A DNA stretch of 64,000 nt from Acidimicrobiales bacterium (GTDB taxonomy: Bacteria; Actinomycetota; Acidimicrobiia; Acidimicrobiales; Aldehydirespiratoraceae). Positions 8,437 to 52,201 of this stretch are shown here, one piece after another. Below the pieces are notes generated by a model. The model ran no database searches, was not told the origin of the DNA, and saw only the letters and a program-made list of their open reading frames with translations. Every line of letters starts with the position of its first letter. Positions within the stretch are counted from its first letter, which is position 1. The stretch covers positions 2,372,798 through 2,436,797 of the forward strand of contig OZ220727.1 of NCBI GenBank assembly GCA_965116865.1. The letters run 5' to 3'. Position numbers and translations under genes: made by a program.

Positions 8437-10736
8437 TCCCGCCCGTGTGCACTGCGCTCACGGGCCGCTCGGGCCACGGCCTCGCCCGTATGGGCCGCGT
8501 CGCCCCCGGCGTCGTCTCCGGTCTGGTCGTCGTCTCCGGTCTGGTCGTCGTCTCCGGTCTGGTCGTCGTCTCCGGTCTCTTGGTCTTCGCCTTCCGCCGG
8601 CTCGGTCTCGATGCGGTCGCCTTCCGTCCCCAGCGACTCGCCCACCACCACGTCCACCTGCGTCTCGGACGACACTTCGAGATCGGGGGGAGGCGTCTGG
8701 GCCAGTATCCGGCCCACGTCCGACGAGCCCGGCTCGACCGGTTCGAACGTGACGATGCCGATGACGAGCCCGGCTCGCTCCACGGCCAGCTTCCCCGTGT
8801 CGAACAACAGGCCCTGCACGTCGGGGATCGCCACCAGCGGAGGACCGTCGGAGGTGATCACGAACACTTCCTGTCCGGCCGACACCGGGAAGCCGTTGGG
8901 CGGGTCGGTGCCGATGACCTGGCCCTCTTCGACCTCGGAAGAGGGCTCGCGCCTCTCGTCGACGCGGAACCCTCGCGCCGTCAAAGCCTGGAAGGCGTCG
9001 ATCAAGGACAGGCCCCGCACGTCCGGCACGAAGATCTGCCCCGGTCCGCTCGAGACGGTGATGGTAACCGCCTCGCCCGCGGCGAGCTCGGTGTTCGAGG
9101 AGGGCTCCTGCCCCACCACGATGCCTGCCTCAGCCTGGCTGGTGCCCTCGATGACGATCACCTCGTAGCCCGCGCTGCGGAGGATGCTCTCGGCGTCGAT
9201 GAGGTTGCGGCCCCGCACGGGCGGAACTCTCGGGATCTCGCTCTGGCTGACGGTGAGCGCCACCCTGGCGCCCTCCTCGATCCGTTGGCCTGCAAGCGGG
9301 CTCTGGGCGAACACCGTGTTCGCGGGCACCCCCGTGTTGACCTGGTAGCTGGGCTCCGGCTCCAGGCCGGCCGACCTCAGCAGAGCGTCCGCCTCGCCGT
9401 AGCTGATCCCAGCAACGTCGGGCACCTCGATCAGCCGGCCGATCTCGGACGCGGACGGCGGATCGGCCGGGTCGTCCTCGTCGATGACCAGCGACCGGTA
9501 GAAGGTCACGCCGAGGAAGCCGAGAGCGACCACGAGGACCACCAAGCCCAAGAACATGAGCACGGTCCGCTTCCAGCCGTCGGACCGGTGGACCTCCTCG
9601 TAGTAGTAGGCCGGCGGCATGTACTGGGGCGGAGGCGCCGGCCCCGGCACGGCGGGCGATTGAGCGCGGGTCCCGGTGGGCGGACCGCCGTCGTGCGGCG
9701 GAACGCCTGCGACCAGGCCGGTGTGCTGCCGGTCTGCCGCCGAGCCCGGCGACGCCTGCGACCCGCTCACAGGACGACGGCCCGACCCCACCACAGGCAA
9801 CTGGCCCGACCCCACCACAGGCAACTGGCCCGACCCCACCACAGGCAACTGGCCCGACCCCACCACAGGCGCCTGGCCGGTGCGGGCCGGTATTCGGTGG
9901 GCGCCGGCCAGGTAGCGCTGAAGATCGGCGCGCAGGTCCTCCGCTGCGGGATAGCGGTTGGCCGGGTTCTTGGCCAGGAGCTTGAGGATGATCGCCTCGA
10001 GGGACTCCACGATGCTCGCTCCCATCACAGAAGGCGCCAAAGGCCGCTCCTGCACATGCTTGACGGCCACCGCGGTCGAGGTGTCGGCGGTGAAGGGGGG
10101 CTTGCCTACGATCATCTCGTAGAGCACGACCCCGAGCGAGTACAGGTCGCTGCGACCGTCTAGGGCCTTGCCCTGGGCCTGCTCGGGCGAGAAGTAGGTG
10201 GCCGTGCCCATGACCGACCCGATATGGGTCAGGTTGTCGCCGGTCCTGCGGGCCAGAGCGGTGGCTATGCCGAAGTCGGCCACCTTCACTTGGCCGTCGT
10301 CGCTGACGATGATGTTGCCGAGCTTGATGTCGCGGTGCACGAGCCCGGCGTTGTGGGCGCTGCTGAGCGCTTCGGCCACGTCGGACGCGATCTCTGCCGC
10401 CCGGTCCGGGCTGAGACGCCCGGTGGAGCGCATCACGTCGGCCATGCTGCGTCCCACCACGTACTCCATGACGATGTAGTACGTGCCCTGCTCCTGGCCC
10501 CAGTCGTAGATGCCGACGATCTTGGGGTGGTTCAGATTGGCCGCGGACTTCGCCTCTCGGCGGAAGCGCTCCACGAAGCTCGGGTCGTCGGCGAACTCCG
10601 GGAACAGAACCTTCACCGCCACCTGCCGGTCGAGCGACGCGTCGTGGGCCAAGTAGACGTCGGCCATGCCGCCGCGGGCGATGCGGCGAAGCAGTTCGTA
10701 GCGACCGTTGAAGACGGTCAGCCCCTCATCTGACAC
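8433..10736 (-). CDS. pknB: Ser/Thr protein kinase with a transmembrane (TM) segment and four PASTA domains
   Basis: Kinase motifs VAVKVL, HRDIKLGNI, DFG and SPEQA. TM segment LMFLGLVVLVVALGFLGV. Repeated PASTA modules. GTG start. Contains two in-frame VNTRs. Confidence 0.9.
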   Translation of the reverse strand: MSDEGLTVFNGRYELLRRIARGGMADVYLAHDASLDRQVAVKVLFPEFADDPSFVERFRREAKSAANLNHPKIVGIYDWGQEQGTYYIVMEYVVGRSMADVMRSTGRLSPDRAAEIASDVAEALSSAHNAGLVHRDIKLGNIIVSDDGQVKVADFGIATALARRTGDNLTHIGSVMGTATYFSPEQAQGKALDGRSDLYSLGVVLYEMIVGKPPFTADTSTAVAVKHVQERPLAPSVMGASIVESLEAIILKLLAKNPANRYPAAEDLRADLQRYLAGAHRIPARTGQAPVVGSGQLPVVGSGQLPVVGSGQLPVVGSGRRPVSGSQASPGSAADRQHTGLVAGVPPHDGGPPTGTRAQSPAVPGPAPPPQYMPPAYYYEEVHRSDGWKRTVLMFLGLVVLVVALGFLGVTFYRSLVIDEDDPADPPSASEIGRLIEVPDVAGISYGEADALLRSAGLEPEPSYQVNTGVPANTVFAQSPLAGQRIEEGARVALTVSQSEIPRVPPVRGRNLIDAESILRSAGYEVIVIEGTSQAEAGIVVGQEPSSNTELAAGEAVTITVSSGPGQIFVPDVRGLSLIDAFQALTARGFRVDERREPSSEVEEGQVIGTDPPNGFPVSAGQEVFVITSDGPPLVAIPDVQGLLFDTGKLAVERAGLVIGIVTFEPVEPGSSDVGRILAQTPPPDLEVSSETQVDVVVGESLGTEGDRIETEPAEGEDQETGDDDQTGDDDQTGDDDQTGDDAGGDAAHTGEAVARAARERSAHGRE
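8511..8580. repeat. 18-bp x ~4 in-frame tandem repeat in the pknB 3' end (GDDDQT units)
   Basis: GTCGTCTCCGGTCTGGTC is repeated; the protein tail reads QTGDDDQTGDDDQTGDDDQTGDD. Confidence 0.9.
9781..9876. repeat. 24-bp x 4 in-frame tandem repeat in the pknB juxtamembrane linker
   Basis: CCCGACCCCACCACAGGCAACTGG is repeated; the protein reads VVGSGQLP x4. Confidence 0.9.
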
Positions 10737-12541: not shown

Positions 12542-12547
12542 CATTGA

Positions 12548-12635
12548 GGCTGGCCTACGGTCCAGAGGATCTCGACCACGCGACCACGCCCGTGCTCGTT
12601 GAGGTCACAGTGCCCGCCGGACAGGCAGCCGACGC
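12548..12635 (+). pseudogene. 88-bp fragment of a RES-domain toxin gene abutting tRNA-Leu
   Basis: Reads AYGPEDLDHATTPVLVEVTVPAGQAAD. It is about 88% identical to the reverse complement of 36506-36592, which lies inside the RES toxin pseudogene. Confidence 0.6.
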
Positions 12636-12770
12636 ATACTGGTGCTTCGCGTTTGAGGTCGGAGTGGAGGTGGTAGAGGTCCGCGGCTGGACGCGAGGGA
12701 TCCTCCGGAATTCGGCGCTGACAGGCAGCTGAGCAACTGGAGGATCCCTGGGGAAGACGACCCTGCGCGC

Positions 12771-13128
12771 ATGTGCGAGCTGCTGGTGGGACTGGGCGAT
12801 GTCGAGGTGCTCGGCATCGACGACGAGGCGGGCGCGCCTCTGCGGGTGCATATCCGCCGACGGGTGCCGCGGCCGGTTCCGGGCCAAGGTCTGGGCCACC
12901 GGCATCGTCGCCGTCGGACGGGGCCAGCTTCTGGACAGAGTCCCAGGCCGCACCGCCCGAGCGCCCACACAGTGGCTGCTTGGCCGTCCCCGCCGCTGGC
13001 TCGCCGCCACCGAAGCCGCCAACAACTTCGTCAAACGCGCCGCGTTCGGGTTCACCAACTTCGCCAATCACCGAAGCCGCGCCCTGCTCTACGCCGAAAA
13101 ACCCAACTGGGCGCTGCTCGACACCTGA
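12771..13128 (+). pseudogene. ISL3-family transposase remnant (N- and C-terminal pieces; interior deleted)
   Basis: The 5' piece reads LLVGLGDVEVLGIDDEAGAPLRVHI. The 3' piece reads TEAANNFVKRAAFGFTNFANHRSRALLYAEKPNWALLDT, the typical ISL3 C-terminus. Confidence 0.65.
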
Positions 13129-13208
13129 AGCGGTCAAAACCCATTCTGAAGCTATCCTGAGTGTTCTGATAGACCGGTTGGCACAACGGGCCTACCCCTG
13201 CTCCGAGG

Positions 13209-15548
13209 TTAAGGCGGCGGCAAGTTGGATGAGTACGGGCGAGACTTAATGTACTCTTCCATGAACGCCAGGTCGAGTTCGTTGCCATCAGTGAGAGGCA
13301 GTCGAATACTCGATCGCCGCATGCGTGTTTGGCTGCATTTCCTGCCGTAGTTGTATCGGTACTGTTCTAGGTTGATTATCGTTACAAGAAACATAGCAAC
13401 ATAGGAGTTCATTGAGAACTTCGGAATCAGCTTCTCAACGTGATCGGATGCGGTAAACGGCTGCGCTTGGTAGCTACAATACCCTGCAACCGCACTGTCA
13501 ACCACAAGGACACCACCCCGTTCCGTGTATGTGCCGAAGAAGTGCCTTACTCCGTTATTCGTCGCCTGAGTCGTTACGAATGGGAATCTCAACTGAGTGC
13601 CATAGTCTCCTGCGTGTAGCTCTCTCAGTGGTGTCGTCTGACTGCCAGTTATCTTAAAGATATCGGCAATCTTAACTTCTTTCCACGTTGATACGTCAAG
13701 AGCGAGTGTGGCTTCACAGCTGGACGCATCGGAAACGTTTGGAACAATTCTGTTCGCAAACAAGTACGCCGAGTATTCGTGTAGCGTATTGTCAAACGGA
13801 TTATCAGTAAGCAGGCCGTAATCTGTCTCCATGTATGCCTCAGCGGCCCATTCATCTGCGCTAGTGAGTACCCGATTGACGCTCAACCCTGGAACAGTCC
13901 GTCGATTGAAGTAGAGGTCAAGCCACTGGCACCTGATTTCGTCCCACTTGCCGAAGGCATCGAAGCGTCCACCAACCTTACGTTTGACGAATCCATCGTC
14001 CTTGTAGTAGCCCAAAAAAACTTCTTGGGTCATTGGATGTTCGCGCCATGCTTCGAACACCATGATGCATGAAACAACGCCGACATCTGAGTTGAAGAAG
14101 AGTTCGTCAGGCATGGACAGAACTGCCCTAAGTGTATGCTTCTCCATCAATTGACGCTTCAGGTCACCAATTGTGCCCTTGACGGCAAGAGCGCATTGCA
14201 TTGGCACGATGGCCACACAGATAGAACCTTGAGTTAGGCATTCCAAGTTGTTGAGCACGAACTGGAGCTCTTCGATGTCCTCCTTCTTGTCAGACTTGTA
14301 AGGAGGGTTCAACATGCCGACCGTGGGTCTGTGTTCCTTCATGCTGTTCATTACGTTAGAATCAAAGCAACTGCCTAGTTCAATATTGGACTTACCATCC
14401 TGATGAATGAGCATGTTTGATACCGCCAGTGGGTATATGTCTGATTGAATCTCAACACCGTACAGATGGTCACTCTTTATTGAGTTCTCTGTTGAGGTGG
14501 AGCCCTTAGCATCATCAATCATCCTCTTCATTGCACTGATCAAAAAGCCGCCAGTCCCGGCACAGCTATCGTAGACCACGGATTCGGATCTGACCTGAGC
14601 AAGTTCGGCAAACAGCTCAGTAATGTGAGGAGGTGTCAAGACGATCCCTAGGCCCTTGTCGCTGTTTGCATGTCGTAGGAACTCGACATATATAGTACCG
14701 AGCACGTCTCGATACTGGTGTGTCTTAACGAAAGAGTTCACTTCACGATCAATCTCAGATACGATGCGTCGCAACTCATGCTGTGATCTGATTAGTTCAG
14801 TTTCAAGAGGCAAGAAACCGAACTTCTGTTCGAGCACGTTCAGACGCTTGCTGCCAATGTTTGCTGACTTGAGTTCAGTGATAACTGAATCCACGATGGA
14901 CTTAGCCAGCTGCGTTGAGTCTGTCTCGGACTGGTATGACTTTCGGAAGGCTCTTCGCTCTAGTGCAATCATCACAGCGCTTATCAATAGAGAGCGATTC
15001 TTCTCGGAGACCTTGTTCTTGTGTAGATCGATGTTCAATTGTCGAATGAACTTTTGAAGAGAGTGAAAGTCCTGTCTATACTTGATGGGGTCGTTACGGT
15101 ATCCTTGCAAGTAGTCGTCAACGGGTAGCAGAGCGTGCCCGAAGGCGTCCCTTGGTTCACGCTCTGACCTGAACTTGAAGAAATGAGATATTCTAGCTGA
15201 CTTGGCATCAGTTCCGCTCACCGCTAGGGCCAAGACATCGTAGTTCTCGGAGAGGTAGGACGCATAGTGTAGCGTGCCATCGACGGCATAGTCTCTCGGT
15301 CTAGCGCGAGTGGGACTCTCGTGTTTAGTGATGTCCTCCTTGCATTCGATGACAATCAACAGTTCGGCTTCCTCATTGAAGCGAACGATGAATTCAGGTT
15401 GACCATGTCCTAGACCTGATTTGGAAGCTTGACTTAGCAGTTTTCGAATTCTGGGTTCTGCAGACTGCTGCTCTTCGAGCACTATCTCATCGCGGAACTG
15501 TTTGAAGTGCTCTCGAACGATGTCTTCAGTGGTTCTTTCATTTGCCAT
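13209..15548 (-). CDS. Single-chain restriction-modification protein: PD-(D/E)xK-like N-domain, gamma-class N6-adenine DNA methyltransferase and one HsdS-type target-recognition domain (Type IIG/IIB-like)
   Basis: N-terminal domain GQPEFIVRF...LLIVIECKED. Methyltransferase motif I is VYDSCAGTGGFLISA and motif IV is MLNPPYKSD. C-terminal TRD: WKEVKIADIFKITGSQTTP...RSSIRLPL. The gene is visibly AT-rich (about mid-40s % GC by eye). Confidence 0.8.
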   Translation of the reverse strand: MANERTTEDIVREHFKQFRDEIVLEEQQSAEPRIRKLLSQASKSGLGHGQPEFIVRFNEEAELLIVIECKEDITKHESPTRARPRDYAVDGTLHYASYLSENYDVLALAVSGTDAKSARISHFFKFRSEREPRDAFGHALLPVDDYLQGYRNDPIKYRQDFHSLQKFIRQLNIDLHKNKVSEKNRSLLISAVMIALERRAFRKSYQSETDSTQLAKSIVDSVITELKSANIGSKRLNVLEQKFGFLPLETELIRSQHELRRIVSEIDREVNSFVKTHQYRDVLGTIYVEFLRHANSDKGLGIVLTPPHITELFAELAQVRSESVVYDSCAGTGGFLISAMKRMIDDAKGSTSTENSIKSDHLYGVEIQSDIYPLAVSNMLIHQDGKSNIELGSCFDSNVMNSMKEHRPTVGMLNPPYKSDKKEDIEELQFVLNNLECLTQGSICVAIVPMQCALAVKGTIGDLKRQLMEKHTLRAVLSMPDELFFNSDVGVVSCIMVFEAWREHPMTQEVFLGYYKDDGFVKRKVGGRFDAFGKWDEIRCQWLDLYFNRRTVPGLSVNRVLTSADEWAAEAYMETDYGLLTDNPFDNTLHEYSAYLFANRIVPNVSDASSCEATLALDVSTWKEVKIADIFKITGSQTTPLRELHAGDYGTQLRFPFVTTQATNNGVRHFFGTYTERGGVLVVDSAVAGYCSYQAQPFTASDHVEKLIPKFSMNSYVAMFLVTIINLEQYRYNYGRKCSQTRMRRSSIRLPLTDGNELDLAFMEEYIKSRPYSSNLPPP

Positions 15549-15952
15549 CAGTATATCTCCTTCCAGACAACTATAGTGTTTATGCCGATATGATGATGAA
15601 TCATGAAGCTACTACAGGCATGTGACACAGTGTTGTTGAAGGGCCGACGGCTGTCGCTCACAGATCGCGATTTCGCCTTGCGCTCGCCGACAATCTTGGT
15701 CATGGCCTTCCCAGTCTGTCACCTCCCGCCATGTCGGGCGCGGCAGTCGGGTCTGAAGTCTCCAAGGCTCGGACTTGGAGGGTCACGTCCAGTTCCTGCA
15801 CCGAGAGCCTGCTGCCCCGCGTCCTCGGTGCCGACGACGCTCTCCAACGCAAGCCAACTTCTCGACTTGCCGGGGCGGTGGCATCCGCTCCGCGCCGATC
15901 GAGCAGGACAGATGAGCGGCGACCTGGATCATCCCAGACGGCTCATCATCGA

Positions 15953-16581: not shown

Positions 16582-18177
16582 TCACCCCGACCCGGCCATC
16601 CCCCATCCGTCGCGGCAGGGACAACGTCCGTCCCCCTGTCCGCGCTTGCTCTCGGCCAAGCGGCCGGTCACGGCCTCCACCGCGGGCACCAGGGCCTCGT
16701 CGATGAGCATCTGCTCGGCCGCCGCAAACTCGGGAGACAGCCAGCGGTCAGGCCCGGGCCCGGGCACCCGGGTCCGCAGCAGGGTCACGGCCGCCCCAGT
16801 TCCGGCTGCGGGCTGCAACGGAGCCCGCAGCTCGATGCCGCGGGCGGCCGCAACCCATTCGACGGCCAGGATGCGGCGCAGGTTGTCGATCACCCGGCGC
16901 AGCTTGCGGGCCGCGCCCCAGCCCATCGAGACGTGGTCCTCCTGCATGGCCGAGGTGGGAAGCGAGTCCACCGACGCCGGCGCGGCCAGGCGCCGGTTCT
17001 CAGCGCAGAGAGCCGCAGCCGTGTACTGGCCGATCATCAGGCCGCTGTCCACACCCGGATCGTCGGCCAGGAACGGGGGCAGCCCGTGTGAGCGGTTGTG
17101 GTCGAGCATCCGGTCGGTGCGACGCTCGGCGACCGCGCCGACCTCGGACGCGGCGATGGCCAGGTAGTCTGCCGCCAGCGCGACCGGCGCCCCGTGGAAG
17201 TTGCCGCACGACTCCACCCGGCCGCCGGGCAGCACCATCGGGTTGTCGATGGCGGAGGCCAGCTCCCGGTCGGCCACCGCGGCCACGAAATCGAGAGTGT
17301 CGCGGGCTGCACCGTGGACTTGGGGGGTGCATCTGACGGAGTAGGCGTCCTGCACCCGGTCGTCACCGGTGCGATGGCTGGCGACAATCGGGGAGTCCGC
17401 CAGCACGGCCCGGAGATTGGCCGCACTGGCCTGCTGCCCGGGATGGGGCCGCAACGCCACCAGGTCGGCGGCGAATGCCCGGTCGGTGGCCAGCAGAGCC
17501 TCCACGCTGCAGCCGGCCACGATGTCGGCCACGGCCAGCAGGTGGGCCAGATCGTGCACAGCCAGGCAGAGCATCCCGAGGATGCCGTCGGTGCCGTTGG
17601 TGAGGGCCAAGCCCTCCTTGTCAGCCAGCTCTACCGGCTCTAGCCCGGCCTGCTCGAGGGCTCCGGCAGCGTCCGCGACTCCTTGGTCGGACTGCACCTC
17701 GCCCTCGCCCGTCATCACCAGAGCGACGTGGGCCAGCGGCGCGAGGTCTCCGCTGGCACCGAGCGAGCCGTGCTCGGGCACGGCGGGGACCACACCCGCA
17801 TTGATCAGCCGCACCAGGGCCTCTGCCACTTCGGGCCGCGCTCCGGAAACACCGAAGGCGAGCGTCCGGGCCCGCAGCATCATCATGGCCCGCACCACCT
17901 CCGCCTCGACCGCCGGCCCCATCCCGGCGGCATGCGAGCGGATCAACGACTGCTGGAGCGCAGCCCGCCGGGCCGCGGGGATGACAGTGTTGGCCAGCGC
18001 GCCGAAGCCGGTGGAGACACCGTAGGCGGGATCCCCGTCCGCCAGTGCCTCGACGATGCGGCGGGCCGCGGCCATGCGAGCGACGGCGTCGGCGCTGAGC
18101 CGGAGCTCCTCGCAACGGCGAGCGACCGCGACGACATCGGACACGGTGACCCCGGCGCCGTCGAGCTGCACCGTCAT
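16582..18177 (-). CDS. hutH: Histidine ammonia-lyase
   Basis: Starts at MTVQLDG (ATG 18177). Contains GVSTGFGALA and the MIO-forming GSLGASGDLAPLAH motif. The N-terminal extension of the 854-aa ORF is rejected. Confidence 0.9.
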   Translation of the reverse strand: MTVQLDGAGVTVSDVVAVARRCEELRLSADAVARMAAARRIVEALADGDPAYGVSTGFGALANTVIPAARRAALQQSLIRSHAAGMGPAVEAEVVRAMMMLRARTLAFGVSGARPEVAEALVRLINAGVVPAVPEHGSLGASGDLAPLAHVALVMTGEGEVQSDQGVADAAGALEQAGLEPVELADKEGLALTNGTDGILGMLCLAVHDLAHLLAVADIVAGCSVEALLATDRAFAADLVALRPHPGQQASAANLRAVLADSPIVASHRTGDDRVQDAYSVRCTPQVHGAARDTLDFVAAVADRELASAIDNPMVLPGGRVESCGNFHGAPVALAADYLAIAASEVGAVAERRTDRMLDHNRSHGLPPFLADDPGVDSGLMIGQYTAAALCAENRRLAAPASVDSLPTSAMQEDHVSMGWGAARKLRRVIDNLRRILAVEWVAAARGIELRAPLQPAAGTGAAVTLLRTRVPGPGPDRWLSPEFAAAEQMLIDEALVPAVEAVTGRLAESKRGQGDGRCPCRDGWGMAGSG

Positions 18178-18668
18178 ACGCGCACAGCCCCCGACAGTCG
18201 ATCGCCGACCGGCTCGCACCGCTCGAACCCGCCGAGCACAGTCACGCGAGCACAGCCACCAGCGCAACGACCGCGCGCGACACAACCACCACAGAACCGA
18301 GCTGCCACCGAACACCCCGCCCAAAGCCCACCAGCGCAACAACCGCGCGCGACACAACCACCACAGAACCGAGCTGCCACCGAACACCCCGCCCAAGACC
18401 CAGCGGCGCAACAACCGCGCGCGACACAACCACCACAGAACCGAGCTGCCACCGAACACCCCGCCCAAAGCCCACCAGCGCAACAACCGCGCGCGACACA
18501 ACCACCACAGAACCGAGCTGCCACCGAACACCCCGCCCAAGACCCAGCGGCGCAACAACCGCGCGCGACACAACCACCACAGAACCGAGCTGCCACCGAA
18601 CACCCCGCCCAAGACCCAGCGGCGCAACAACCGCGCGCGACACAACCACCACAGAACCGAGCTGTCAC
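18174..18668 (-). other. 164-codon bridge ORF spanning the array, bounded by GTGA (iclR stop) and ATGA (hutH start)
   Basis: The GTG at 18668-18666 overlaps the iclR TGA at 18667-18665. Its TGA at 18176-18174 overlaps the hutH ATG at 18177-18175. It reads ARFCGGCVARGCCAAGSWAGCSVA repeated. Confidence 0.3.
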
Positions 18669-18712
18669 CGAACACCCCGCCCAAGACCCAGCGGCGCAAC
18701 GACCGCGCGCGA
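18256..18712. repeat. 72-bp x ~6.3 tandem array between iclR and hutH (two alternating unit variants)
   Basis: Unit: CACCAGCGCAACAACCGCGCGCGACACAACCACCACAGAACCGAGCTGCCACCGAACACCCCGCCCAAAGCC. Variants carry AAAGCCCACCAGCGC or AAGACCCAGCGGCGC. Confidence 0.95.
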
Positions 18713-19417
18713 CGCGGCCGTTGCGGCCTCGACCACTGCTGTGGCCGCTCTGTCGAGGCGCCTGCCGACCAGGCGGTCGGCCGGACCCAGCACCGACATG
18801 GCCGCGACGGGACCAGCCGATCCGTACACCGGCGCGCAGACCGCGGTGACGTCGGGCTCGATGCTGCCGGTGTTGAGGACATACGGGGGCCGGTCGCCGG
18901 CCGCCTGTCCGGCGGAGTGCAGCGCCTCGCCCACAGCGGTGCCGTGGATCGGCACGGAGCGGCCGACCCAGCCGACATGGCGAATGGCCCGGCGGCCCTC
19001 GACCGTGGCGATGTAGACCGCCTCGTCGCCGTCGCGCACAGCCAGGTAGGCGGACTCCTCTGTGAGCTCGACAATCCGTTCGAGCTCGGGCTGGGCCGCC
19101 GCCAGGAGCCTGGCGTAGGGGCCCGATTGCAACGAGGCCAAGGCAATGCGCACGAAGGAGGCGCCTACGGAGTACGTCCCGCCGTCGTTCTTCACCAGGT
19201 AGCCGCCGTCGGTCAGCACCCGCAGGTGGCGCAGGGCTGTGCTCGTCGGCATGCCGGTTCGGACCGCTGCCGCGGTCAGGCTGAGCGCGCCCTCGGTGAC
19301 GACGGTGTCCAAGAGCGCCAGCACACGCTCAGCAGAGCGCGACTTGTGCAGCGATGACTCGGGCGTAGCACGGCTGACAGCCGTAGACATTTCAGATTCT
19401 GAAATGATATGCCGCAT
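18665..19417 (-). CDS. IclR-family transcriptional regulator (divergent from hutU)
   Basis: wHTH LSLTAAAVRTGMPTSTALRHLRVLTDGGYLV followed by an IclR effector domain. The C-terminal ~15 aa are encoded by the first repeat unit. Confidence 0.85.
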   Translation of the reverse strand: MRHIISESEMSTAVSRATPESSLHKSRSAERVLALLDTVVTEGALSLTAAAVRTGMPTSTALRHLRVLTDGGYLVKNDGGTYSVGASFVRIALASLQSGPYARLLAAAQPELERIVELTEESAYLAVRDGDEAVYIATVEGRRAIRHVGWVGRSVPIHGTAVGEALHSAGQAAGDRPPYVLNTGSIEPDVTAVCAPVYGSAGPVAAMSVLGPADRLVGRRLDRAATAVVEAATAASRAVVAPLGLGRGVR

Positions 19418-19486: not shown

Positions 19487-21214
19487 ATGCCCGCCAGATC
19501 ACAGCCCAGAGGGAACGCTCCCGCCCGCGGCGCGAGATCTCCGACCCGGGGCGCTCCAACCAGGGGCGTGAGGTCTCCCACCGGCACCGCGCTGACGTGC
19601 CGCGGCTGGCCTCAGGAAGCTGCCTTCCGGATGCTTCAGAACAACCTCGACCCCGACGTGGCCGAACGTCCCGACGATCTCGTGGTGTACGGCGGGACGG
19701 GACGGGCCGCCAGATCCTGGGACGCCTACCATGCCATGATCCGGGCCCTGACCGACCTCGCCGGCGACGAGACCCTGCTGGTGCAGTCGGGCAAGCCCGT
19801 CGGCGTGCTGCAAACCCACGAGTGGGCGCCCAGGGTCCTCATCGCCAACTCCAATCTCGTGGGCGAGTGGGCCACATGGGACGAGTTCCGGCGACTCGAA
19901 CAGCTCGGGTTGACCATGTTCGGGCAGATGACCGCGGGCTCGTGGATCTACATCGGCACGCAGGGAATCTTGCAGGGCACCTACGAGTGCTTCGCGGCCA
20001 TCGCCCGCAAGCGCTTCGGCGGATCGCTGGCGGGAACCCTCACCGTGACCGCCGGCCTGGGCGGCATGGGCGGCGCCCAGCCCCTGGCCATCACCATGAA
20101 CGACGGAGTCGCCTTGTGCATCGAGGTCGACGGCGAGCGGGCCGCCCGGCGGGTGGAGACCCGCTATCTCGACGTGGTCGCCGACGGCTACGCCGATGCA
20201 CTGCGCCGCTGCGAGGAGGCACGCTCCGCCCGTCGGCCGCTGTCGGTGGGGCTGGTCGGCAATGCGGCCGACGTAGTGCCGCGCCTGCTGGCCGACGGCG
20301 TGTCCGCCGACATCGTCACCGACCAGACCTCCGCCCACGACCCGTTGACCTACGTTCCCAACGACCTGCCGCCCGAAGCCGCCGACGAGCTGCGCCGGAA
20401 CCAGCCCGAGGAGCTCATCCGCCGGTCCCGTGTCGCCATGGCCGCCCATGTGGAGGCCATGGTCGGCTTCCTCGACGCGGGCGCCGAGGTGTTCGACTAC
20501 GGCAACAGCCTGCGAGCCGAGGCCCTCCTGGGGGGCTGCGAGCGGGCCTTCGACTATCCGGGCTTCCTGCCCGCCTACATCCGGCCGCTGTTCTGCGAGG
20601 GCAAGGGGCCGTTCCGATGGGTGGCGCTGTCGGGCGATCCGGCCGACATCGCGGCCACCGACCGGGCCGTGCTCGAGGAGTTCCCCCACGACGACGGCCT
20701 CAGGCGCTGGATCACCCTGGCCGCCGAGCGGGTCGAGTTTCAGGGCCTGCCCGCCCGGATCTGTTGGCTCGGATACGGGGAACGTCACCGACTGGGACTG
20801 AAATTCAACGAGATGGTCCGCTCCGGCGAATTGACCGCACCCGTAGTCATCGGGCGCGACCACCTCGACTCGGGCTCGGTGGCCTCGCCCTACCGTGAGA
20901 CCGAGGACATGCTCGACGGCAGCGACGCCATCGCCGACTGGCCCCTGCTCAACGCGCTGGTGAACACGTCGTCGGGAGCGTCGTGGGTGAGCATCCACCA
21001 CGGCGGCGGAGTGGGCATCGGCCGGTCGATCCACGCCGGGCAGGTGATCGTGGCCGACGGGACCGGCCTGGCGGCGCAGAAGCTGGAGCGGGTGCTGCTC
21101 AACGACCCGGCCACCGGCGTGATGCGCCACGCCGACGCCGGCTACGACCGGGCCTGGGAAGTGGCAGCCGAGCAAGGCGTGAACATACCGACAGACACAG
21201 CAGCCCCGCCATGA
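19487..21214 (+). CDS. hutU: Urocanate hydratase
   Basis: [43 protein letters not shown] and [22 protein letters not shown]. Confidence 0.9.
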
Positions 21215-21384
21215 CCGCCGAACACAGCAAGGCGAGCTCCTGGAACAGAGACACACACTGCGACGAGCACACGAACAACCCCGCCATGACCGCCGAACAC
21301 AGCGTTACCGGGCCCGTGGCCTCCTCGCCCAGGTGGCAGGATCCCCGGCCGAGCCGGATGTCCGCCCGGCCGTCGGCGCCATGA
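21211..21384 (+). other. 57-codon bridge ORF between hutU and def, containing a 75-bp duplication
   Basis: The ATG at 21211 overlaps the hutU TGA (21212-21214). The TGA at 21382-21384 overlaps the def ATG at 21381. CCCCGCCATGACCGCCGAACACAGC occurs at 21204 and 21279. Confidence 0.3.
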
Positions 21385-21950
21385 CGGTCCGCGACATACT
21401 CGCCATCGGCCATCCGGCGCTGCGGGTCCCGGCCGCGGCCGTGCCTCCGAGCGAGATCCGCAGCCGGCGGGTGCAGGACGTCGTCGACGACCTCATCGAC
21501 ACGATGCGCCACGCCGACGGAGCAGGGCTGGCCGCCAACCAGATCGGCGAGACAGCCCGGATCGTCGTCATCGAAGTGAACGACAACCCCCGCTACCCCT
21601 ACAAACCGCCGATCCCACTCACCGTCGCCATAAACCCCGAACTGGAGGCGCTCGACGACACGACCGTGATCATCAACGAAGGCTGCCTGTCGGTGCCGCT
21701 GCGAGGCGACGTGGCCCGCTCGGTGAACCTCCGGGTCCGCTACTTCGACCGTGACGGCGCCGAGCACCGCCTCGAGGCCCACGGCCTGGCCGCGGGCACC
21801 TGGCAGCACGAGTGCGACCACCTCGACGGCGTGCTGATCACCGACCGGGCCGACCCGGCGACCCTCGCCACTTGGGACGAGTTCGAGCGGCACCACCGAA
21901 ACGCATTCATCGAGCGCATCTCGAGGTTCGTGCAACTCGTCGGATCATGA
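21381..21950 (+). CDS. def: Peptide deformylase-family metallohydrolase embedded in the hut operon
   Basis: All three PDF motifs are present: GAGLAANQIG, EGCLSVP and QHECDHLDG. The protein is 189 aa, taking the MTVRD start. Confidence 0.85.
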   Translation: MTVRDILAIGHPALRVPAAAVPPSEIRSRRVQDVVDDLIDTMRHADGAGLAANQIGETARIVVIEVNDNPRYPYKPPIPLTVAINPELEALDDTTVIINEGCLSVPLRGDVARSVNLRVRYFDRDGAEHRLEAHGLAAGTWQHECDHLDGVLITDRADPATLATWDEFERHHRNAFIERISRFVQLVGS

Positions 21951-22450
21951 CGGCCCGGCACGTCGACATGTCCCACGGCCGACAATCTGTCAAGAAACCA
22001 CCGCACAGGCAGAAAAACCTGCAGAAGTTCAACAAATGCCCGTCCGGACGGCCTCCAACGACCGGGGCGGCACCAACGTTGACGTTCGGCGCCAGCGAAT
22101 TCAACAAATGCCCGTCCGGACGGCCTCCAACGACCGGGGCGGCACCAACGTTGACGTTCGGCGCCAGCGAATTCAACAAATGCCCGTCCGGACGGCCTCC
22201 AACGACCGGGGCGGCACCAACGTTGACGTTCGGCGCCAGCGAATTCAACAAATGCCCGTCCGGACGGCCTCCAACGACCGGGGCGGCACCAACGTTGACG
22301 TTCGGCGCCAGCGAATTCAACAAATGCCCGTCCGGACGGCCTCCAACGACCGGGGCGGCACCAACGTTGACGTTCGGCGCCAGCGAATTCAACAAATGCC
22401 TGTCCGGACGGCCTCCAACGACCCAGGACACCGGGGAGCCGCGAGCATGA
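21947..22450 (+). other. 167-codon bridge ORF through the array, with ATGA overlaps at both ends
   Basis: The ATG at 21947 overlaps the def TGA (21948-21950). The TGA at 22448-22450 overlaps the hutF ATG at 22447. Both junctions share ATGACGGCCCG (MTAR). Confidence 0.3.
22028..22422. repeat. 72-bp x ~5.5 tandem array between def and hutF
   Basis: Unit: TTCAACAAATGCCCGTCCGGACGGCCTCCAACGACCGGGGCGGCACCAACGTTGACGTTCGGCGCCAGCGAA. Each unit has a perfect 12-bp palindrome (CCGTCCGGACGG) plus AACGTT and GAATTC. Confidence 0.95.
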
Positions 22451-23847
22451 CGGCCCGCTACTGGTGCGAGCGGGCGTGGCTGGGAGGTCCCCGAGCCGAC
22501 ACCGGCGTGGTGATCGAAGTGGAAGGCGACCGCATCGGCCGAGTGGCTGCCGGGGTGCGCACCCGGCCCGAGGACGCCGAGCCTTTGGCAGGCCTCACTC
22601 TGCCGGCGCTGGCCAACGTCCACAGCCACGCCTTCCACCGGGCCCTGCGAGGCCGGACCCACCACGGGCGGGGCAACTTCTGGACTTGGCGCGAACTCAT
22701 GTACCGGGCGGCGTCCCGGCTCGACCCCGACCGCTGCCACCGGCTGGCTCGGGCGGTGTTCGCGGAGATGGCGCTGGCCGGCATCGGAGTGGTCGGCGAG
22801 TTCCACTACGTCCACCACCGGCCCGCGGGCGACGCCTACGAAGATCCCAACGCTATGAGCGCCGCGCTGGTCGCCGCCGCCCGCGACGCCGGAATCCGTC
22901 TGACCCTGCTCAACGCTCTGTACCTGCACGCCGGCCTGGACGCCGTCTCATCCGGCGGTCACAGCCGGCGACGCTCCGACTCAACCCGCGGCTACAGCCC
23001 GCTGCGGCCCGAGCAGGCCCGCTTCAGCGACGGCAGCGCCGCACGATGGGCCGAGCGGGCCTCCGACCTGGAAGCTGCCGTGTCCGGCCCGGCGGTGAGG
23101 GTGGGTGCAGCGGTGCATTCGGTGCGGGCCGTCGATCCGGCCTCCATGAAGGTGGCAGCCGCCTGGGCCCGGGACCGGGACGCGCCGCTGCACTTCCACG
23201 CCTCCGAGCAGCCGGCCGAGAACGAGCAGTGCCTCGCCGTGCACGGCCGAACCCCGGTAGAGGTCATCGCGGAGACCGGAGGGCTGGGACCCTCCACGAC
23301 GCTGGTGCATGCCACCCACGTCACCGAGCAGGACCGGGCGCTGATCGGCGAGACCGGCACCGGCTGCTGCCTGTGCCCGACCACCGAGCACGACCTCGCC
23401 GACGGCGTGGGCCCGGCCGAGGCGCTGGCCCGGACCGGTGCCCGGCTTTGCGTGGGATCGGACTCGCACGCCGTCGTCGACCTCTTCGCAGAAGTCAGGA
23501 CGGTAGAGCTCGACCAGCGCGCCGCCACCGGCGACCGGGGCGTGTTCGGTGTGGAGGAGTTGGCCTCCATGGCCACCGCCGCCGGTTACCGGTCCTTGGG
23601 CTGGCCCGACGGCGGCGTCCTGGAGGTGGGCGCGCTGGCCGACTTCGCCACCGTCGGCCTCGACTCGGTACGCCTGGCCGGCATCGACGACGACAGCGCG
23701 CTGGCCGCGGTGATCTTCGCGGCGACCGCCGACGATGTGCGTCACCTGGTGGTGGGAGGGAGGACCGTCGTGAAGGAGGGACGGCACACTTCCGTCGATG
23801 CCGCCGCAGAGCTCGCCACAGCCATCGCGGAAATGACTGCACCATGA
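22447..23847 (+). CDS. hutF: Formimidoylglutamate deiminase
   Basis: LPALANVHSHAFHRALRGRTHHGRGNFWTWRELMYR and GVVGEFHYVHH; amidohydrolase fold. Starts at MTARYW. Confidence 0.85.
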   Translation: MTARYWCERAWLGGPRADTGVVIEVEGDRIGRVAAGVRTRPEDAEPLAGLTLPALANVHSHAFHRALRGRTHHGRGNFWTWRELMYRAASRLDPDRCHRLARAVFAEMALAGIGVVGEFHYVHHRPAGDAYEDPNAMSAALVAAARDAGIRLTLLNALYLHAGLDAVSSGGHSRRRSDSTRGYSPLRPEQARFSDGSAARWAERASDLEAAVSGPAVRVGAAVHSVRAVDPASMKVAAAWARDRDAPLHFHASEQPAENEQCLAVHGRTPVEVIAETGGLGPSTTLVHATHVTEQDRALIGETGTGCCLCPTTEHDLADGVGPAEALARTGARLCVGSDSHAVVDLFAEVRTVELDQRAATGDRGVFGVEELASMATAAGYRSLGWPDGGVLEVGALADFATVGLDSVRLAGIDDDSALAAVIFAATADDVRHLVVGGRTVVKEGRHTSVDAAAELATAIAEMTAP

Positions 23848-24287
23848 CACCCACGACCGCGCCAGCCGAGGGCCCGCCACAGCCATCACGGAAATGACTG
23901 CACCATGACACCCACGACCGCGCCAGCCGAGGGCCCGCCACAGCCATCACGGAAATGACTGCACCATGACACCCACGACCGCGCCAGCCGAGGGCCCGCC
24001 ACAGCCATCACGGAAATGACTGCACCATGACACCCACGACCGCGCCAGCCGAGGGCCCGCCACAGCCATCACGGAAATGACTGCACCATGACACCCACGA
24101 CCGCGCCAGCCGAGGGCCCGCCACAGCCATCGCGGAAATGACTGCACCATGACACCCACGACCGCGCCAGCCGAGGGCCCGCCACAGCCATCGCGGAAAT
24201 GACTGCACCATGACACCCACGACCGCGCCAGCCGAGGGCCCGCACCGACCATCGCGGAAATGACTGCACCATGACACCCACGACCGC
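23815..24287. repeat. 61-bp x ~7.75 tandem array between hutF and hutI; it copies the hutF 3' end and stop
   Basis: Unit: GCCACAGCCATCrCGGAAATGACTGCACCATGACACCCACGACCGCGCCAGCCGAGGGCCCGCC. Each unit carries two ATGA tetranucleotides. Confidence 0.95.
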
Positions 24288-24534
24288 CTCCCCGGACCGC
24301 CCGCAGGCAGGCATTCGCGTCCCGCGCCGGGATGGGATCGCTCCCGCTGCCGCCCGCTGCAACGACGGACTGCTAGTCAGGATCCGCGTAGCCGGACTCG
24401 TCAACGGGGTCGCTGCCGCTGCCGCCCGCTGCAACCACGGACTGCTCAGACCGCGGCTGTGGCCGCATGGACCGGACTCGCCCAGTTCCTCGGCCGGCCA
24501 CCTACGGGCAGCCTCGGAGGTCGCTGCATCGTGA
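24271..24534 (+). other. 87-codon bridge ORF from the last repeat unit to hutI
   Basis: It starts at the ATGA of the last unit. The TGA at 24532-24534 overlaps GTG 24531, the predicted hutI start (GTGA). Confidence 0.3.
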
Positions 24535-25715
24535 CGCTGGTGGTCGACAACATCTCCGAGCTGGTCACCAACGACCCCACGCTCGGGAAAGGGCCGCTCG
24601 GGATCGTCGATGACGCTTCGGTGGTGGTGGACGGCGGCGCCGTGGTGGCAGTGGGCCCGGCAGGCGCCGCCGCCGACGAGCGCCTCGACGCGGACGGACG
24701 CTGCGTGCTGCCCGGGTTCGTGGACTCCCACACCCATCTGGTCTTCGCGGGCGACCGGGCCGAGGAGTTCAGCCGCCGGATGGCGGGAGAGCCCTACGAC
24801 GGGGGCGGCATCCGCGTCACCACCGAAGCCACACGCACGGCCGGGCGGGCCGCGCTGGGAGCCTCGCTCGACGGGCGGCTGGCCGAGATGCACCGGGCCG
24901 GCACCACCACGGTGGAGATCAAGACAGGCTACGGGCTGTCGGTGGACTCCGAAGCCGAACTTGCGTCGCTGGCCGCCGAGGTCACTCCGGAGGCCACCTT
25001 CCTCGGCGCTCACCTCGTGCCCGGCGAGTACCAGGGGCGCACCGACGACTACGTCGAACTGGTGTGCGGGCCGATGCTCGACGCGGTCCGCGGCCATGTC
25101 CGCTGGATGGACGTGTTCTGCGAGACCGGCGCCTTCGACGCCGACCAGTCCCGAGCGGTGCTCGCCGCCGGCCACCAGGCTGGGCTGGGCCTGCGGCTCC
25201 ACGGCAACCAGCTCGGCCACGGACCGGGAGTGCAACTCGCCGTCGAGATGGGCTGCGCGTCGGTGGACCACTGCACCTATCTCTCAGACGCCGACATCGA
25301 GGCCTTGGCGGCCAGCGGCACGGTGGCCACGTTCCTGCCGGCCACCGACTTCTCGACCCGCCAGCCCTATCCCGACGCCCGACGGGCGATAGACGCCGGC
25401 GTGAGGGTGGCCATCGCCTCGAACTGCAACCCCGGGTCGAGCTACACGAGCTCGCTGTCGTTCTGCGTGGCGCTGGCCGTGCGCGACATGGGCATGACCA
25501 TCGACGAGGCGGTGGCTGCGGTCACCATCGGAGGCGCGGCCGCGCTTCGCCGCACCGACGTGGGCCGGGTCACGCCCGGCGGCGCGGCCCACATGACCGT
25601 CCTCGACGCCCCCAGCCGCCACCACCTCGCCTACCGGCCGGGCGTCCCGTTGATCTGGCGGACCCTGGGATCCGACTACCGGCTCCCGCCCGCAGACGAC
25701 CAGGCTCAGGCATGA
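24531..25715 (+). CDS. hutI: Imidazolonepropionase
   Basis: [34 protein letters not shown]-like LHGNQLGH, and ASNCNPGSS. The GTG at 24531 is preferred over the ORF-track ATG at 24459. Confidence 0.85.
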
Positions 25716-25861
25716 ACCCACAGGAGTACGAACCGCCATCGCCATTCCCGACCCCCCGCGAACGCGCGATCCAGGGGCTTGTCCATGAGCCGCAGATTGC
25801 CAGAGAGCTTGTGCACGGGGCGGCTGCTGTCTCGATTGTGTGCTACAACAAAGTAACACTC

Positions 25862-25946
25862 TCGAGAGGATGCAAGAATCGAGAGGATGCAAGAATCGAG
25901 AGGATGCCAGACTCGAGAGGATGCCAGACTCGAGAGGATGCAAGAG
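25862..25946. repeat. 17-bp x 5 tandem repeat
   Basis: TCGAGAGGATGCAAGAA and TCGAGAGGATGCCAGAC units. Confidence 0.9.
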
Positions 25947-26013
25947 ATGTATGGCGACATCCTCAGGTGGACACAGCAACTGCCAGTCGGCGAGCTGGTC
26001 GACCTCGAGGCCG

Positions 26014-26125
26014 TTCCCGTCCGTGGGCTGAACCGTCTGCCGCAGTCACGGCACCGGAACCGCCGGCTTGGATGCTTCGCACCGTCCTGCACCCTGTCGC
26101 TGTCGCAGTGCGGACACTGTGCCCT
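26014..26125 (-). pseudogene. Zinc-ribbon fragment of an IS1595/IS1-type transposase
   Basis: CPHCDSDRVQDGAKHPSRRFRCRDCGRRFSPRTGT lies within ORF 25706-26245. No catalytic domain follows. Confidence 0.35.
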
Positions 26126-26223
26126 TGGAACTAACCATCTAGAGGCCGGGCTTGCGAGGCCGTGGCCCGAGCAGCCCGTGAGCGCAGCGAACAAGAACGG
26201 GAACCAGAGGCGCCCGGCCTGGC

Positions 26224-29089: not shown

Positions 29090-31162
29090 CCGTCGCTGAA
29101 TTGATCGGGGCACCTGGAGCGCCTCCGAGCGAGGCTTCGGGCCTTCCGCGCTGCCCTAGGAGGCTGGTGTTTTTCTCGGGTGGGGTTGGGTGTGTGTGGT
29201 AGAGTTGCAGGGATGTTGTTCGGTCTCGTGGGGAGGTTCGTGTCGTGACGGTGGGTGTGGAGCCGTGTCGGGTGGATCTGTTCAAGGGTTCGCATTTCGT
29301 GGGGGAGCGGCTGGCGGCGGATTCGATTTTTTCGGTGTTGGCGCGTGAGGGGCGGCGGTTGTTTCCCGACGGGATGTTCGATGATCTCTTTAGTTCGCGG
29401 GGGCGGCGCAGTGTGCCGCCGCGGGTGGTTGCTGTGGTGATGGTGCTGCAGCGCTGGTTCGGGTTGTCTGAGTGTGAGGCGGTGGCCGCGTTCGAGTTCG
29501 ACGCGCGTTGGCGTTATGCGTGCGGGTGCCTCGACGTGGACGGCGGCGGGTTCGACCACACGGTGCTGGTGGGGATGCGGGCGCGGCTCGCGGCGTCGCA
29601 GCGGCCGCGGCGGATCTTCGAAGCGGTGCTGGGCGCGGCCCGCGAGGCGGGGGCGTTGTCTCGGCGGCGGGTGCTGGACTCGGTGCCGGTCTATGACGCG
29701 GTCGCGACCCAAGACACTGTCACGATGCTGCACCGCGCCATCGGCGCGGTGCTCGCAGCCGGCGGGGGCGACGCCGGCGCGGGCTTGCGTGGCGACTATC
29801 GGCGCGGCAGCAGGCCGGTGTGCGACTGGGACGACCCCGGCGAGCGCTCGGAGTTGGTGGACGCGCTGGGCGCGGACGCCGCGGCGGTGCTCGCCGGGTT
29901 GGAGGGCCGCGAGCTCAGCGGGGCTCTCAGCGAGGCTGCGGAGTTGTTGGCCGCGGTCTGCGGGCAGGACCTCTGCGAGGACCCCGACGGGCGGTTCATG
30001 ATCGCGCGGCGCGTCGCCGCGGACCGGGTCATCTCCACGGTGGACCCCGACGCCCGCCACGGCCACAAATCCACCGCACGGCGCTTCGACGGCTACAAGG
30101 GCCACGCCGCGGTGGACCCCGACTCCGAACTCGTCACCGACACCGCGGTCACCCCCGCTGACACCGCCGACGCCCAACCCGCCCCCCAACTCATACACGA
30201 CCTCCTCAACACCGCCGACACCAACACCAACACCGCCGACACCGACACCGCCGACACCGACACCGCCGACACCGACACCGCCGACACCGACACCGCCGAC
30301 ACCGACACCGCCGACACCGACGCCGACACCGCCGATACCGACACCGACACCGACACCGCCGACACCGCCGACACCGCCGACGCCGACACCGCCGACACCG
30401 CCGACACCGCCGACGGCGGCGGTGTGGTCGAGGAGTTCGAGGGCCGGCCGACGGTCTATGGCGACAGCGCGTACGGCAGCGGAGAGTTCCAAGGGCTGCT
30501 CGAGCGCAGCCGCATAAACTCGAGGTGCCGCACCCAGCCGGCGCGCGCTCCGGGGGGCCGCTTCGCCAAGGACCGCTTCGACGTCGATCTGCCCAACGGC
30601 ACAGTCACCTGCCCCGCGGGGGTCTGCGTCGCTGTCCGCTTCGGCCGCGACGGCTCGGGCGCGGCCCGCTTCGGGCCGGCGTGCGCGAGCTGCGAACTGC
30701 GCGACCGCTGCACCAGCGCAGCCGGCGGAAGGACTGTGCGCGTCGGACCCGACGAGGCCGTGCTCGCCGCGGCCCGCGAACGCCAACAAGACCCACAATG
30801 GCGCCGCGACTACCGCGCCGTGCGCCCCAAAGTCGAACGCAAGCTCGCGCACCTCGTGCACCGCAAAAACGGCGGCCGCCACGCCCGGGTGCGCGGCCGG
30901 CCCAAAGTCGACGCCGACTTCAACCTGCTCGCCGCAGCCGCCAACATCGCGCGCCTCGGCATGCTCGGACTGCGCTCCACACCAACAGGATGGACCCTCG
31001 ACTGACCCCGCCAAAGCCCCAACCCGCCCCCGACACGACCAACCAGCCGCCCCCGACACGACCAACCCTCGCCCAACCCGCCGACCCCGGCCACCACCCA
31101 CCACAACAGCCCACCGAACACCAATTTGGCACCAGCCACCTAGCAATTTGGACGACACACCA
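29090..31162 (+). mobile_element. IS1182/IS5-like insertion sequence (~2.07 kb)
   Basis: Flanked by the duplicated ACTAGAGG(T) at 29081-29089 and 31162-31170. Imperfect inverted repeats (IRs) are GGTCCGTCGCTGAATTG and CAATTTGGACGACACACC. Confidence 0.7.
29245..31005 (+). CDS. IS1182-family DDE transposase with an internal Asp/Thr/Ala tandem-repeat insert
   Basis: DUF772-type N-terminus (SVPPRVVAVVMVLQRWFGLSECEAV), then GYKGHAAVDPDSELV, VYGDSAYGSGEF and KVDADFNLLAAAANIARLG. The repeat lies at 30205-30415 (DTADTDTAD...). Confidence 0.85.
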   Translation: MTVGVEPCRVDLFKGSHFVGERLAADSIFSVLAREGRRLFPDGMFDDLFSSRGRRSVPPRVVAVVMVLQRWFGLSECEAVAAFEFDARWRYACGCLDVDGGGFDHTVLVGMRARLAASQRPRRIFEAVLGAAREAGALSRRRVLDSVPVYDAVATQDTVTMLHRAIGAVLAAGGGDAGAGLRGDYRRGSRPVCDWDDPGERSELVDALGADAAAVLAGLEGRELSGALSEAAELLAAVCGQDLCEDPDGRFMIARRVAADRVISTVDPDARHGHKSTARRFDGYKGHAAVDPDSELVTDTAVTPADTADAQPAPQLIHDLLNTADTNTNTADTDTADTDTADTDTADTDTADTDTADTDADTADTDTDTDTADTADTADADTADTADTADGGGVVEEFEGRPTVYGDSAYGSGEFQGLLERSRINSRCRTQPARAPGGRFAKDRFDVDLPNGTVTCPAGVCVAVRFGRDGSGAARFGPACASCELRDRCTSAAGGRTVRVGPDEAVLAAARERQQDPQWRRDYRAVRPKVERKLAHLVHRKNGGRHARVRGRPKVDADFNLLAAAANIARLGMLGLRSTPTGWTLD

Positions 31163-45055: not shown

Positions 45056-45118
45056 TCACCGCCCGCATCCACACCAACCATACCACAACCAACCCCAATA
45101 ACTAAAGACTCAGGACAC
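43958..45118 (-). mobile_element. IS630-family element, type B, copy 1
   Basis: IRs are GTGTCCCGAGTC and GACTCAGGACAC. It shares single TA dinucleotides with both flanking type-A copies. Confidence 0.8.
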
Positions 45119-52184: not shown

Positions 52185-52201
52185 GGTGGTGGGGGTAGCG
52201 T

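Follow-up and report, generated by a model that had tools for sequence, protein, structure and literature searches.

Mycobacterial interspersed repetitive units (MIRUs) are tandem units of 46–101 bp that occupy operon spacers, contain open reading frames (ORFs) overlapping at −4 nt and vary in copy number by strain (PMC12548453, PMC3914561, PMC4213456). At the rnc-fpg junction of the Mycobacterium tuberculosis complex, a junction of 1–6 bp has been expanded to 279–358 bp at VNTR3239/ETR-F (variable number tandem repeat, VNTR; exact tandem repeat, ETR), with units of 55 and 79 bp, a polymorphic length and, as reported, higher fpg expression accompanying longer repeats (PMC2734929). Here a 61-bp tandem array is described that lies between hutF (formimidoylglutamate deiminase) and hutI (imidazolonepropionase) in a 64-kb stretch of contig OZ220727.1 (assembly GCA_965116865.1), referred to below as the window and constituting the part of the host genome that could be searched. 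The host is a sponge-associated member of the Acidimicrobiia, with the closest relatives of its HutF and HutI occurring in metagenome-assembled genomes of sponge-associated Acidimicrobiia that include Candidatus Poriferisodalis and Candidatus Aldehydirespirator.

The array can be classed among the intergenic variable-number repeats that occur at operon junctions, its MIRU-like ORF architecture having arisen locally. As judged from the sequence it is probably a lineage-specific, copy-number-variable minisatellite and not a dedicated translational device, with initiation at hutI led by a Shine-Dalgarno (SD) sequence of its own. On this reading it represents an ordinary phenomenon in unusually clear form, and relatives reveal a probable origin in the duplication and subsequent amplification of an overlapping stop/start junction, with the consequence that such arrays come to resemble chains of coupled mini-ORFs.

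The 61-bp array and its chain of ORFs

Tandem Repeats Finder placed 7.8 units of 61 bp at 23814–24287 on the plus strand (score 897, 98% matches, no indels), with a base composition of 43% C, 25% G and 7% T, confirming the presence of an array between the two genes as originally predicted. The units are in register and near-identical apart from a single G/A variant at offset 13, clustered along the array (in unit order G,A,A,A,A,G,G,G), and from the last unit, in which the first ten bases have diverged. They are contiguous without spacers, as expected of a minisatellite or VNTR; the same feature rules out a CRISPR array, in that one 61-bp unit follows directly on the next along its full length with no unique spacers between them. 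A REP- or MITE-type element (repetitive extragenic palindrome; miniature inverted-repeat transposable element) was also rejected, there being no inverted repeats in the adjoining gap, no stable fold and no other copies in the window.

The genes on either side were defined by family matches above cut-off and by alignment to relatives. hutF (22447–23847, plus strand, 466 aa) matches NCBIfam NF006681 and TIGR02022 with start and stop set by the alignment of relatives, while hutI (24531–25715, plus strand, 394 aa) matches TIGR01224, and the proposed start at GTG 24531 is borne out by relatives, which align there to HutI residue 1. An identical 394-aa HutI is on record, while exact look-ups of the window HutF, of a 603-aa extended ORF and of an MBL-fold protein from the window found no protein on record. 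The 603-aa ORF is the longest that ends at the hutF stop and wrongly runs through a second, 72-bp array between def and hutF. This has practical consequences, in that gene callers will join such arrays to adjacent genes and short-read assemblies break there.

Unit 1 opens with the last 34 nt of hutF, in keeping with the suggestion that the units copy the 3′ end of hutF. The accompanying statement that every unit encodes AIAEMTAP applies only to the G-variant units, with units 2–5 encoding AITEMTAP. A script walk starting at the hutF stop (TGA 23845–23847) recovered the alternating 17- and 4-codon ORFs linked by ATGA that had been proposed, comprising 14 mini-ORFs at 23844–24274 on the plus strand, seven of 17 codons (MTPTTAPAEGPPQPSRK, the seventh reading ..GPHRPSRK) and seven of four codons (MTAP). 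The last ATGA opens an 87-codon bridging ORF (24271–24534, plus strand) that ends in the GTGA of hutI, also as proposed. There are thus 15 intervening ORFs and 16 stop/start junctions between hutF and hutI, all NTGA, with each stop in the chain overlapping the ATG that follows it (ATGA) and the final TGA overlapping GTG 24531 (GTGA). The stop/start spacing is −4 at all 16 junctions, which lies within the −4 to +3 range taken for coupling, while the distances from start to start are 50 and 11 nt, not the 51 and 10 nt first given. The third-position GC signal of genuine genes is missing from the 87-codon ORF, which has no NCBIfam match and whose C-terminus is a relic of the C-terminus of HutF.

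Copy number was estimated indirectly from the depth of Logan unitigs (k-mers) in three sequencing runs, with no read spanning the array. X1, a 2015 sponge metagenome, contains 96% of the words of the locus, while X2 and X3 come from different hosts and different studies. The seven unit-to-unit transitions of the window compare with ~6.0 in X2, ~6.3 in X3 and ~2.1 in X1, corresponding to about 7–8 units in X2 and X3 and about 3 in X1, and for the 72-bp array ~4.5–5 transitions in the window compare with ~4.5 in X3 and ~2.6 in X1. The ratio of A-variant to internal G-variant unitigs was ~4:2 in both X2 and X3, matching the window, with X1 differing from both in its unitig structure. The population variation in unit number that the original prediction had suggested checking thus seems to exist, with a copy-number polymorphism of ~3 versus ~8 units between populations being likely. 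The unitigs built from short reads end where the array begins and ends, as they might if a shorter repeat had been spuriously expanded during assembly, but the depth ratios of two independent runs reproduce both the total copies and the 4:2 variant ratio and the array of 474 bp is well below long-read length, such that an assembly artefact is scarcely credible.

A blastn comparison of the unit with the rest of the window, including its other seven long-period arrays, gave no significant match. The uniqueness of the unit within the window together with the k-mer depths therefore points to a locally generated variable-number repeat. The array occurs in none of 21 related loci, and a scan of metagenome contigs for the unit joint returned one match, in an unrelated contig (L081), that was dismissed as chance.

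Probable origin from a duplicated stop/start junction

A hutF-hutI spacing of −4 (ATGA/GTGA) was seen at over 35 loci of Acidimicrobiia, among them L082 and L084, which encode the closest relatives of HutI (90–91% identity). The hutF tail of these relatives reads ...GCCATCACGGAGGTCACGGCGCCATGAC, with GGAGGT 11 nt before the hutI start, which places the SD of hutI inside the last codons of hutF. The window holds two versions of this tail. Copy 1, which ends hutF, reads GCCATCGCGGAAATGACTGCACCATGAC, three substitutions having removed the SD (GGAGGTC to GGAAATG) and made the second ATGA of the unit. Copy 2, a diverged second copy at 24505–24534 on the plus strand, reads CGGGCAGCCTCGGAGGTCGCTGCATCGTGAC (24505–24535) and retains GGAGG at 24516–24520, 10 nt before GTG 24531, with its TGA overlapping that start. 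Nucleotides 24505–24535 are identical to the hutF tails of relatives at 19–22 of 31 positions, a match that ranks within the top 0.07% when every 26-mer of the window is considered. Alignment to relatives shows, at the level of sequence, an ancestral 4-nt overlap between hutF and hutI, with the hutI SD within the end of hutF, and the two tail versions in the window indicate that this junction was duplicated. The two tails resemble different types that occur among relatives, the hutF end being of the ELAAAI.EVTAP*/ATGA type and the relic before hutI of the ELRAA..EVV[AS]*/GTGA type. From these differing tail types, the hutF 3′ end may have been replaced by recombination instead of plain duplication.

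Between the tail copies lie 0.68 kb of non-coding DNA made up of the 61-bp array, a decayed 72-nt duplication and sequence without an assigned origin. The decayed duplication (24334–24477, plus strand) was found by repeat search as an older tandem duplication of period 72, with 41-nt cores at 24334–24374 and 24406–24446 that are 93% identical. The 243-nt gap that follows the array was considered as a longer relic of the hutF 3′ end, although it is recognizable as such only over its last 30–40 nt, and blastn and tblastx comparisons of this gap with the hutF 3′ ends of relatives gave nothing consistent. The part of the unit that does not derive from hutF reads ACCCACGACCGCGCCAGCCGAGGGCC; its local alignment to the hutI 5′ end, where a plain duplication across the junction would place its source, was no better than that of shuffles (p = 0.54) and its similarity to an insertion in the relative L002 was not significant (p = 0.18).

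The unit size, tandem layout, orientation and −4 nt overlaps all match the description of MIRUs and could therefore suggest that a mobile repeat of this kind was inserted at the start codon of hutI and then multiplied. However, the first 34 nt of the unit are hutF coding tail homologous to the tails of relatives, the unit has no second copy in the window whose eight arrays are dissimilar, and inverted repeats are absent from the gap adjoining the array, making such an insertion highly improbable. In the preferred account, a 61-bp segment across the hutF stop would have been amplified by replication slippage or unequal recombination, with each unit bringing the ancestral ATGA together with a second ATGA derived from the mutated SD, and the array would still be expanding and contracting between ~3 and ~8 units among populations.

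The ORF chain would then be a by-product of ATGA amplification. DNA that is poor in T is poor in stop codons and therefore any such ATGA array reads as a chain of ORFs. Where a unit holds an ATGA and no other stop, a period that is not a multiple of three gives a chain while a multiple of three gives one fused ORF. The 72-bp arrays at two neighboring junctions form single long ORFs. Between def and hutF, a 167-codon ORF (21947–22450, plus strand) starts in the ATGA of the def stop, crosses a 72-bp × 5.5 array (22028–22423) and ends in the ATGA of the hutF start, its first residues being MTAR, a relic of the HutF N-terminus; these genes overlap by 4 nt in most relatives and are split here by 496 nt, the insertion being partly shared with L002. 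Between the IclR-family gene and hutH (18174–18713, minus strand), a 72-bp × 6.3 array (18262–18713) fills the junction and reaches into the 3′ end of the IclR-family gene, and one minus-strand ORF (18668 to 18174) links the GTGA of the IclR stop to the ATGA of hutH (ATG 18177).

The open path through the non-repeated 243-nt gap (24288–24530) survives in 21–37% of dinucleotide shuffles and is therefore unremarkable, while the repeat itself is clearly beyond chance. In array-aware shuffles, an unbroken path from the upstream stop to the downstream start, termed here a relay, is kept in 17–33% of cases for hutF to hutI, 33–64% for def to hutF and 39–70% for IclR to hutH.

Initiation at hutI and the reach of a possible ribosome relay

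The GGAGG of hutI is predicted to form an anti-SD duplex of −10.7 kcal/mol, with ~1–5% of random positions in the window binding as well. The 15 mini-ORF and bridging starts lie between −1.1 and −3.8 kcal/mol, which is background, and have no SD match. Published work indicates that an SD sequence assists translational coupling (PMC12548453); at the restart codons, where an SD or other enhancer is contributory but not obligatory for coupling, an SD was found only at hutI and none at the mini-ORFs. With a strong SD at hutI and mini-ORFs that lack one, independent initiation at hutI is the likeliest course. The hutI gene would thus be translated mainly de novo from its own SD such that the array uncouples hutI from hutF instead of tuning it. 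Ribosomes restarting along the chain would be few, at most keeping the C-rich, unstructured spacer from being wholly untranslated. The original prediction held that downstream expression could scale with the number of units, and took an SD-led hutI start independent of the array as its refutation. The sequence gives the scaling no support, given the mini-ORFs without SD, and at sequence level the GGAGG that belongs to hutI provides such a start, leaving the relay unproven and not refuted.

RNA features were examined in the same region. Compared with shuffles, the array RNA folded less stably (z +6.1 over 781 nt; z +2.5 over two units), and a hairpin sequestering the hutI ribosome binding site, as in RNA-unfolding models of coupling, was no better than in shuffles (z −1.2). 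Rfam has no family in or near the array. In the sponge metatranscriptome X21, relatives without the array (90–95% identity) transcribe hutU-def-hutF-hutI. One X21 contig aligns to 23755 and resumes at 24529, the stretch between not being resolved, and may fit a relative without the array in which hutF and hutI are co-transcribed. None of the RNA runs examined contains the 61-bp array.

A functional relay would have ribosomes that leave hutF restarting at each ATGA through the mini-ORFs and the 87-codon ORF to reach hutI. Selection would then tolerate only expansions that left the relay unbroken, and with each unit adding two restarts the number of units would set the coupled fraction of hutI. 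A review notes coupling without an SD and proposes that MIRU ORFs serve to deliver ribosomes (PMC12548453), and the apparent variation between ~3 and ~8 units among populations would suit such a role. Several observations weigh for the relay and against a by-product. At each of the three hut junctions that carry an array the NTGA relay is unbroken and non-fused, an outcome with a joint chance of ~0.02 under the array-aware null and 0.15 when in-frame fusions are counted, and across relatives the relay is unbroken at all eight enlarged hutF-hutI spacers. Apparently separate junction duplications in relatives each keep it, with a 17-codon bridging ORF of period 50 between hutF and hutI in L086, 12-codon ORFs of period 35 between def and hutF in L003 and L084/85, and in L002 a 32-codon ORF between hutF and hutI that is ATGA-linked at both ends and preceded by an SD, with none for hutI itself. 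Simple duplications of the junctions have periods of 35, 50 and 95, each leaving a remainder of two on division by three, as a one-step relay needs. By comparison, hutI and dao overlap in no more than two of the loci, and a relay is rare at their junction, occurring in four of 15 spacers. SD-assisted reinitiation following the 87-codon ORF would likewise be consistent with the retained GGAGG, and the one metatranscriptome found contains only relatives without the array.

This pattern across relatives is suggestive only, because the cases are few and partly kin and the null is lenient, two of three frames succeeding in stop-poor DNA. A relay of this length would also have to pass through 16 serial restarts, of which even 50% success at each step would let through ~1e−5 of ribosomes, with no SD at any of the 15 intermediate starts and a strong SD at hutI itself. 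An array-bearing PP2C-PknB junction has no relay. A working relay is accordingly thought unlikely, although it is the most serious competitor to a by-product. Were it real, the locus would offer a natural test bed for the reach of serial termination-reinitiation and a simple mutational means of tuning operon stoichiometry in uncultured symbionts. A more far-reaching version, in which coupling is so important that only relay-preserving expansions were fixed and the hut arrays act as slippage-driven heritable rheostats on hutH, hutF and hutI, and in which separately a lineage-specific duplication process works with a ~10.5-bp ruler and a strand bias (a plus strand rich in C and A and poor in T), is more doubtful still.

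The spacer might instead act at the level of transcription, with 0.68 kb of C-rich, G-poor, unstructured RNA loading Rho such that array length modulates the transcription that reaches hutI, whether or not sparse translation of the mini-ORFs gives protection. The excess of C over G in the array and its weak folding relative to shuffles are in keeping with this, a scan of 21900–24700 placed neither an intrinsic terminator nor a sigma-70-like promoter in the array, and M. tuberculosis offers parallels in the reported correlation of repeat length with fpg expression (PMC2734929) and in the promoter activity of the MIRU-containing senX3-regX3 spacer (PMC4213456). Against it, the argument is purely compositional and Rho dependence in these Acidimicrobiia is an assumption, and other arrays of the window in non-operon contexts share the same composition, which is therefore not specific to operon spacers. 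While Rho loading at the array is compatible with these observations they offer no evidence of it, and polarity of this kind is very unlikely to be the role of the array. The by-product minisatellite with SD-led initiation at hutI therefore remains the reading to which the balance of evidence inclines, with most remaining interest attaching to the clade-wide, relay-preserving duplication of junctions and to the unexplained classes of array period and composition.

Genomic setting and comparison with known systems

At a threshold of at least 96% identity, eight long-period arrays were counted in the window. In addition to the three at hut junctions these begin at 10785 (72 bp × 5.5), 12220 (62 bp × 2.6), 15953 (73 bp × 3), 33631 (62 bp × 2.4) and 53371 (52 bp × 4.2). 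No sequence similarity was found among the eight, so that a shared MIRU-like family was rejected. The homologous loci of 16 relatives, ~204 kb in all, contain no comparable array; one further relative, L086, has a 71-bp × 3 array. The periods fall into classes of 52, 61–62 and 72–73 bp, in steps of about one DNA helical turn, and in six of the eight arrays C makes up 43% or more of the plus strand and T only 2–8%, with non-array intergenic DNA being unskewed. Three arrays occupy hut-cluster junctions (IclR-hutH on the minus strand, def-hutF and hutF-hutI) that overlapped or nearly did so in relatives, and the stop codon lies within the array at three genes, namely those encoding IclR and HutF and a DUF4143 ATPase gene (52199–53416). 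We infer a survivorship effect, in that within a compact genome tandem duplication would be harmless only where it straddles the border of a gene, which leaves each gene end with one intact copy.

In relatives the gene order is IclR (minus strand) followed by hutU-def-hutF-hutI-DAO. In the window hutU (19487–21214) and the peptide deformylase gene def (21333–21950), both assigned by NCBIfam, lie upstream of hutF. The gap between hutU and def is 118 nt here (21215–21332) and has no bridging relay ORF, while the two genes overlap or nearly abut in relatives with both genes called (4-nt overlap in L084). The DAO gene that follows hutI in relatives and encodes a 487-aa FAD oxidase is absent from the window, its place (25712–26223) being taken by 508 nt with a 17-bp × 4.9 array (25862–25945) and a 140-codon ORF without a family match, the ATG of which overlaps the hutI stop as ATGA.

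Other features of the window were recorded in passing. A dispersed element of ~45 nt (..TTCGCTGCGCTCACGGGCNGCTCGGGCC..) without a match in Rfam occurs near gene 3′ ends, at 26150–26200 (minus strand) and 8448–8470 in the window and at 5146–5239 of L002 and 2826–2911 of L055. A reverse-complement, REP-like version of it seems to form an in-frame insertion of 39 codons at the hutI start of L014, and the bin 25983–26200 that contains the element reached the very high depth of ~11,400 in the sponge metatranscriptome X21. At 59234–59333 (minus strand), the Rfam family PYLIS_3, an mttB pyrrolysine insertion element, was matched at 47.9 bits within an uninterrupted MttB-family methyltransferase ORF (58854–60428). 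Direct repeats at 42796–43770 and 45118–46092 (99.6%) and inverted repeats at 43955–45123 and 47677–48845 (98.2%) may represent insertion sequences or a duplicated gene block. A low-GC island at 12545–15952 (~51–54% GC against ~68% elsewhere) adjoins a tRNA gene, and a DDE transposase gene (29203–31002) contains internal 9- and 15-bp repeats (30209–30414).

Among known systems, the ancestral hutF/hutI and def/hutF junctions are textbook examples of gene pairs coupled through an NTGA overlap, and every junction of the chain retains the −4 spacing at which coupling is most efficient. Such pairs couple two genes once, whereas here there are 16 serial junctions that pass through SD-less, non-coding mini-ORFs. 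The array resembles ETR-F in that a junction of a few bp in relatives has been expanded by tandem units in one lineage. It differs from ETR-F, for which no ATGA-linked chain of ORFs is described, in that the ETR-F repeat begins 40 bp past the upstream stop while the hut array contains the stop. The likeness to MIRUs, such as that of the M. tuberculosis senX3-regX3 spacer, extends to a tandem arrangement co-oriented with the flanking genes in a high-GC actinobacterium, with 7.8 head-to-tail units of 61 bp, within the 40–100 bp expected of such units, lying between the co-oriented hutF and hutI and ORF overlaps of −4 nt through ATGA at the hutF stop and in each unit and GTGA at hutI. The host is a sponge-associated member of the Acidimicrobiia and not a mycobacterium, and where MIRUs constitute a dispersed family of related sequences at 41 loci that is thought to be mobile, the hut unit is unique within the window, is built from the local hutF tail and has a period of 61 bp with two ATGAs that yields alternating ORFs of 17 and four codons. 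The logic by which an amplified junction comes to resemble coupled mini-ORFs could nevertheless apply equally to the ORFs of mycobacterial MIRUs.

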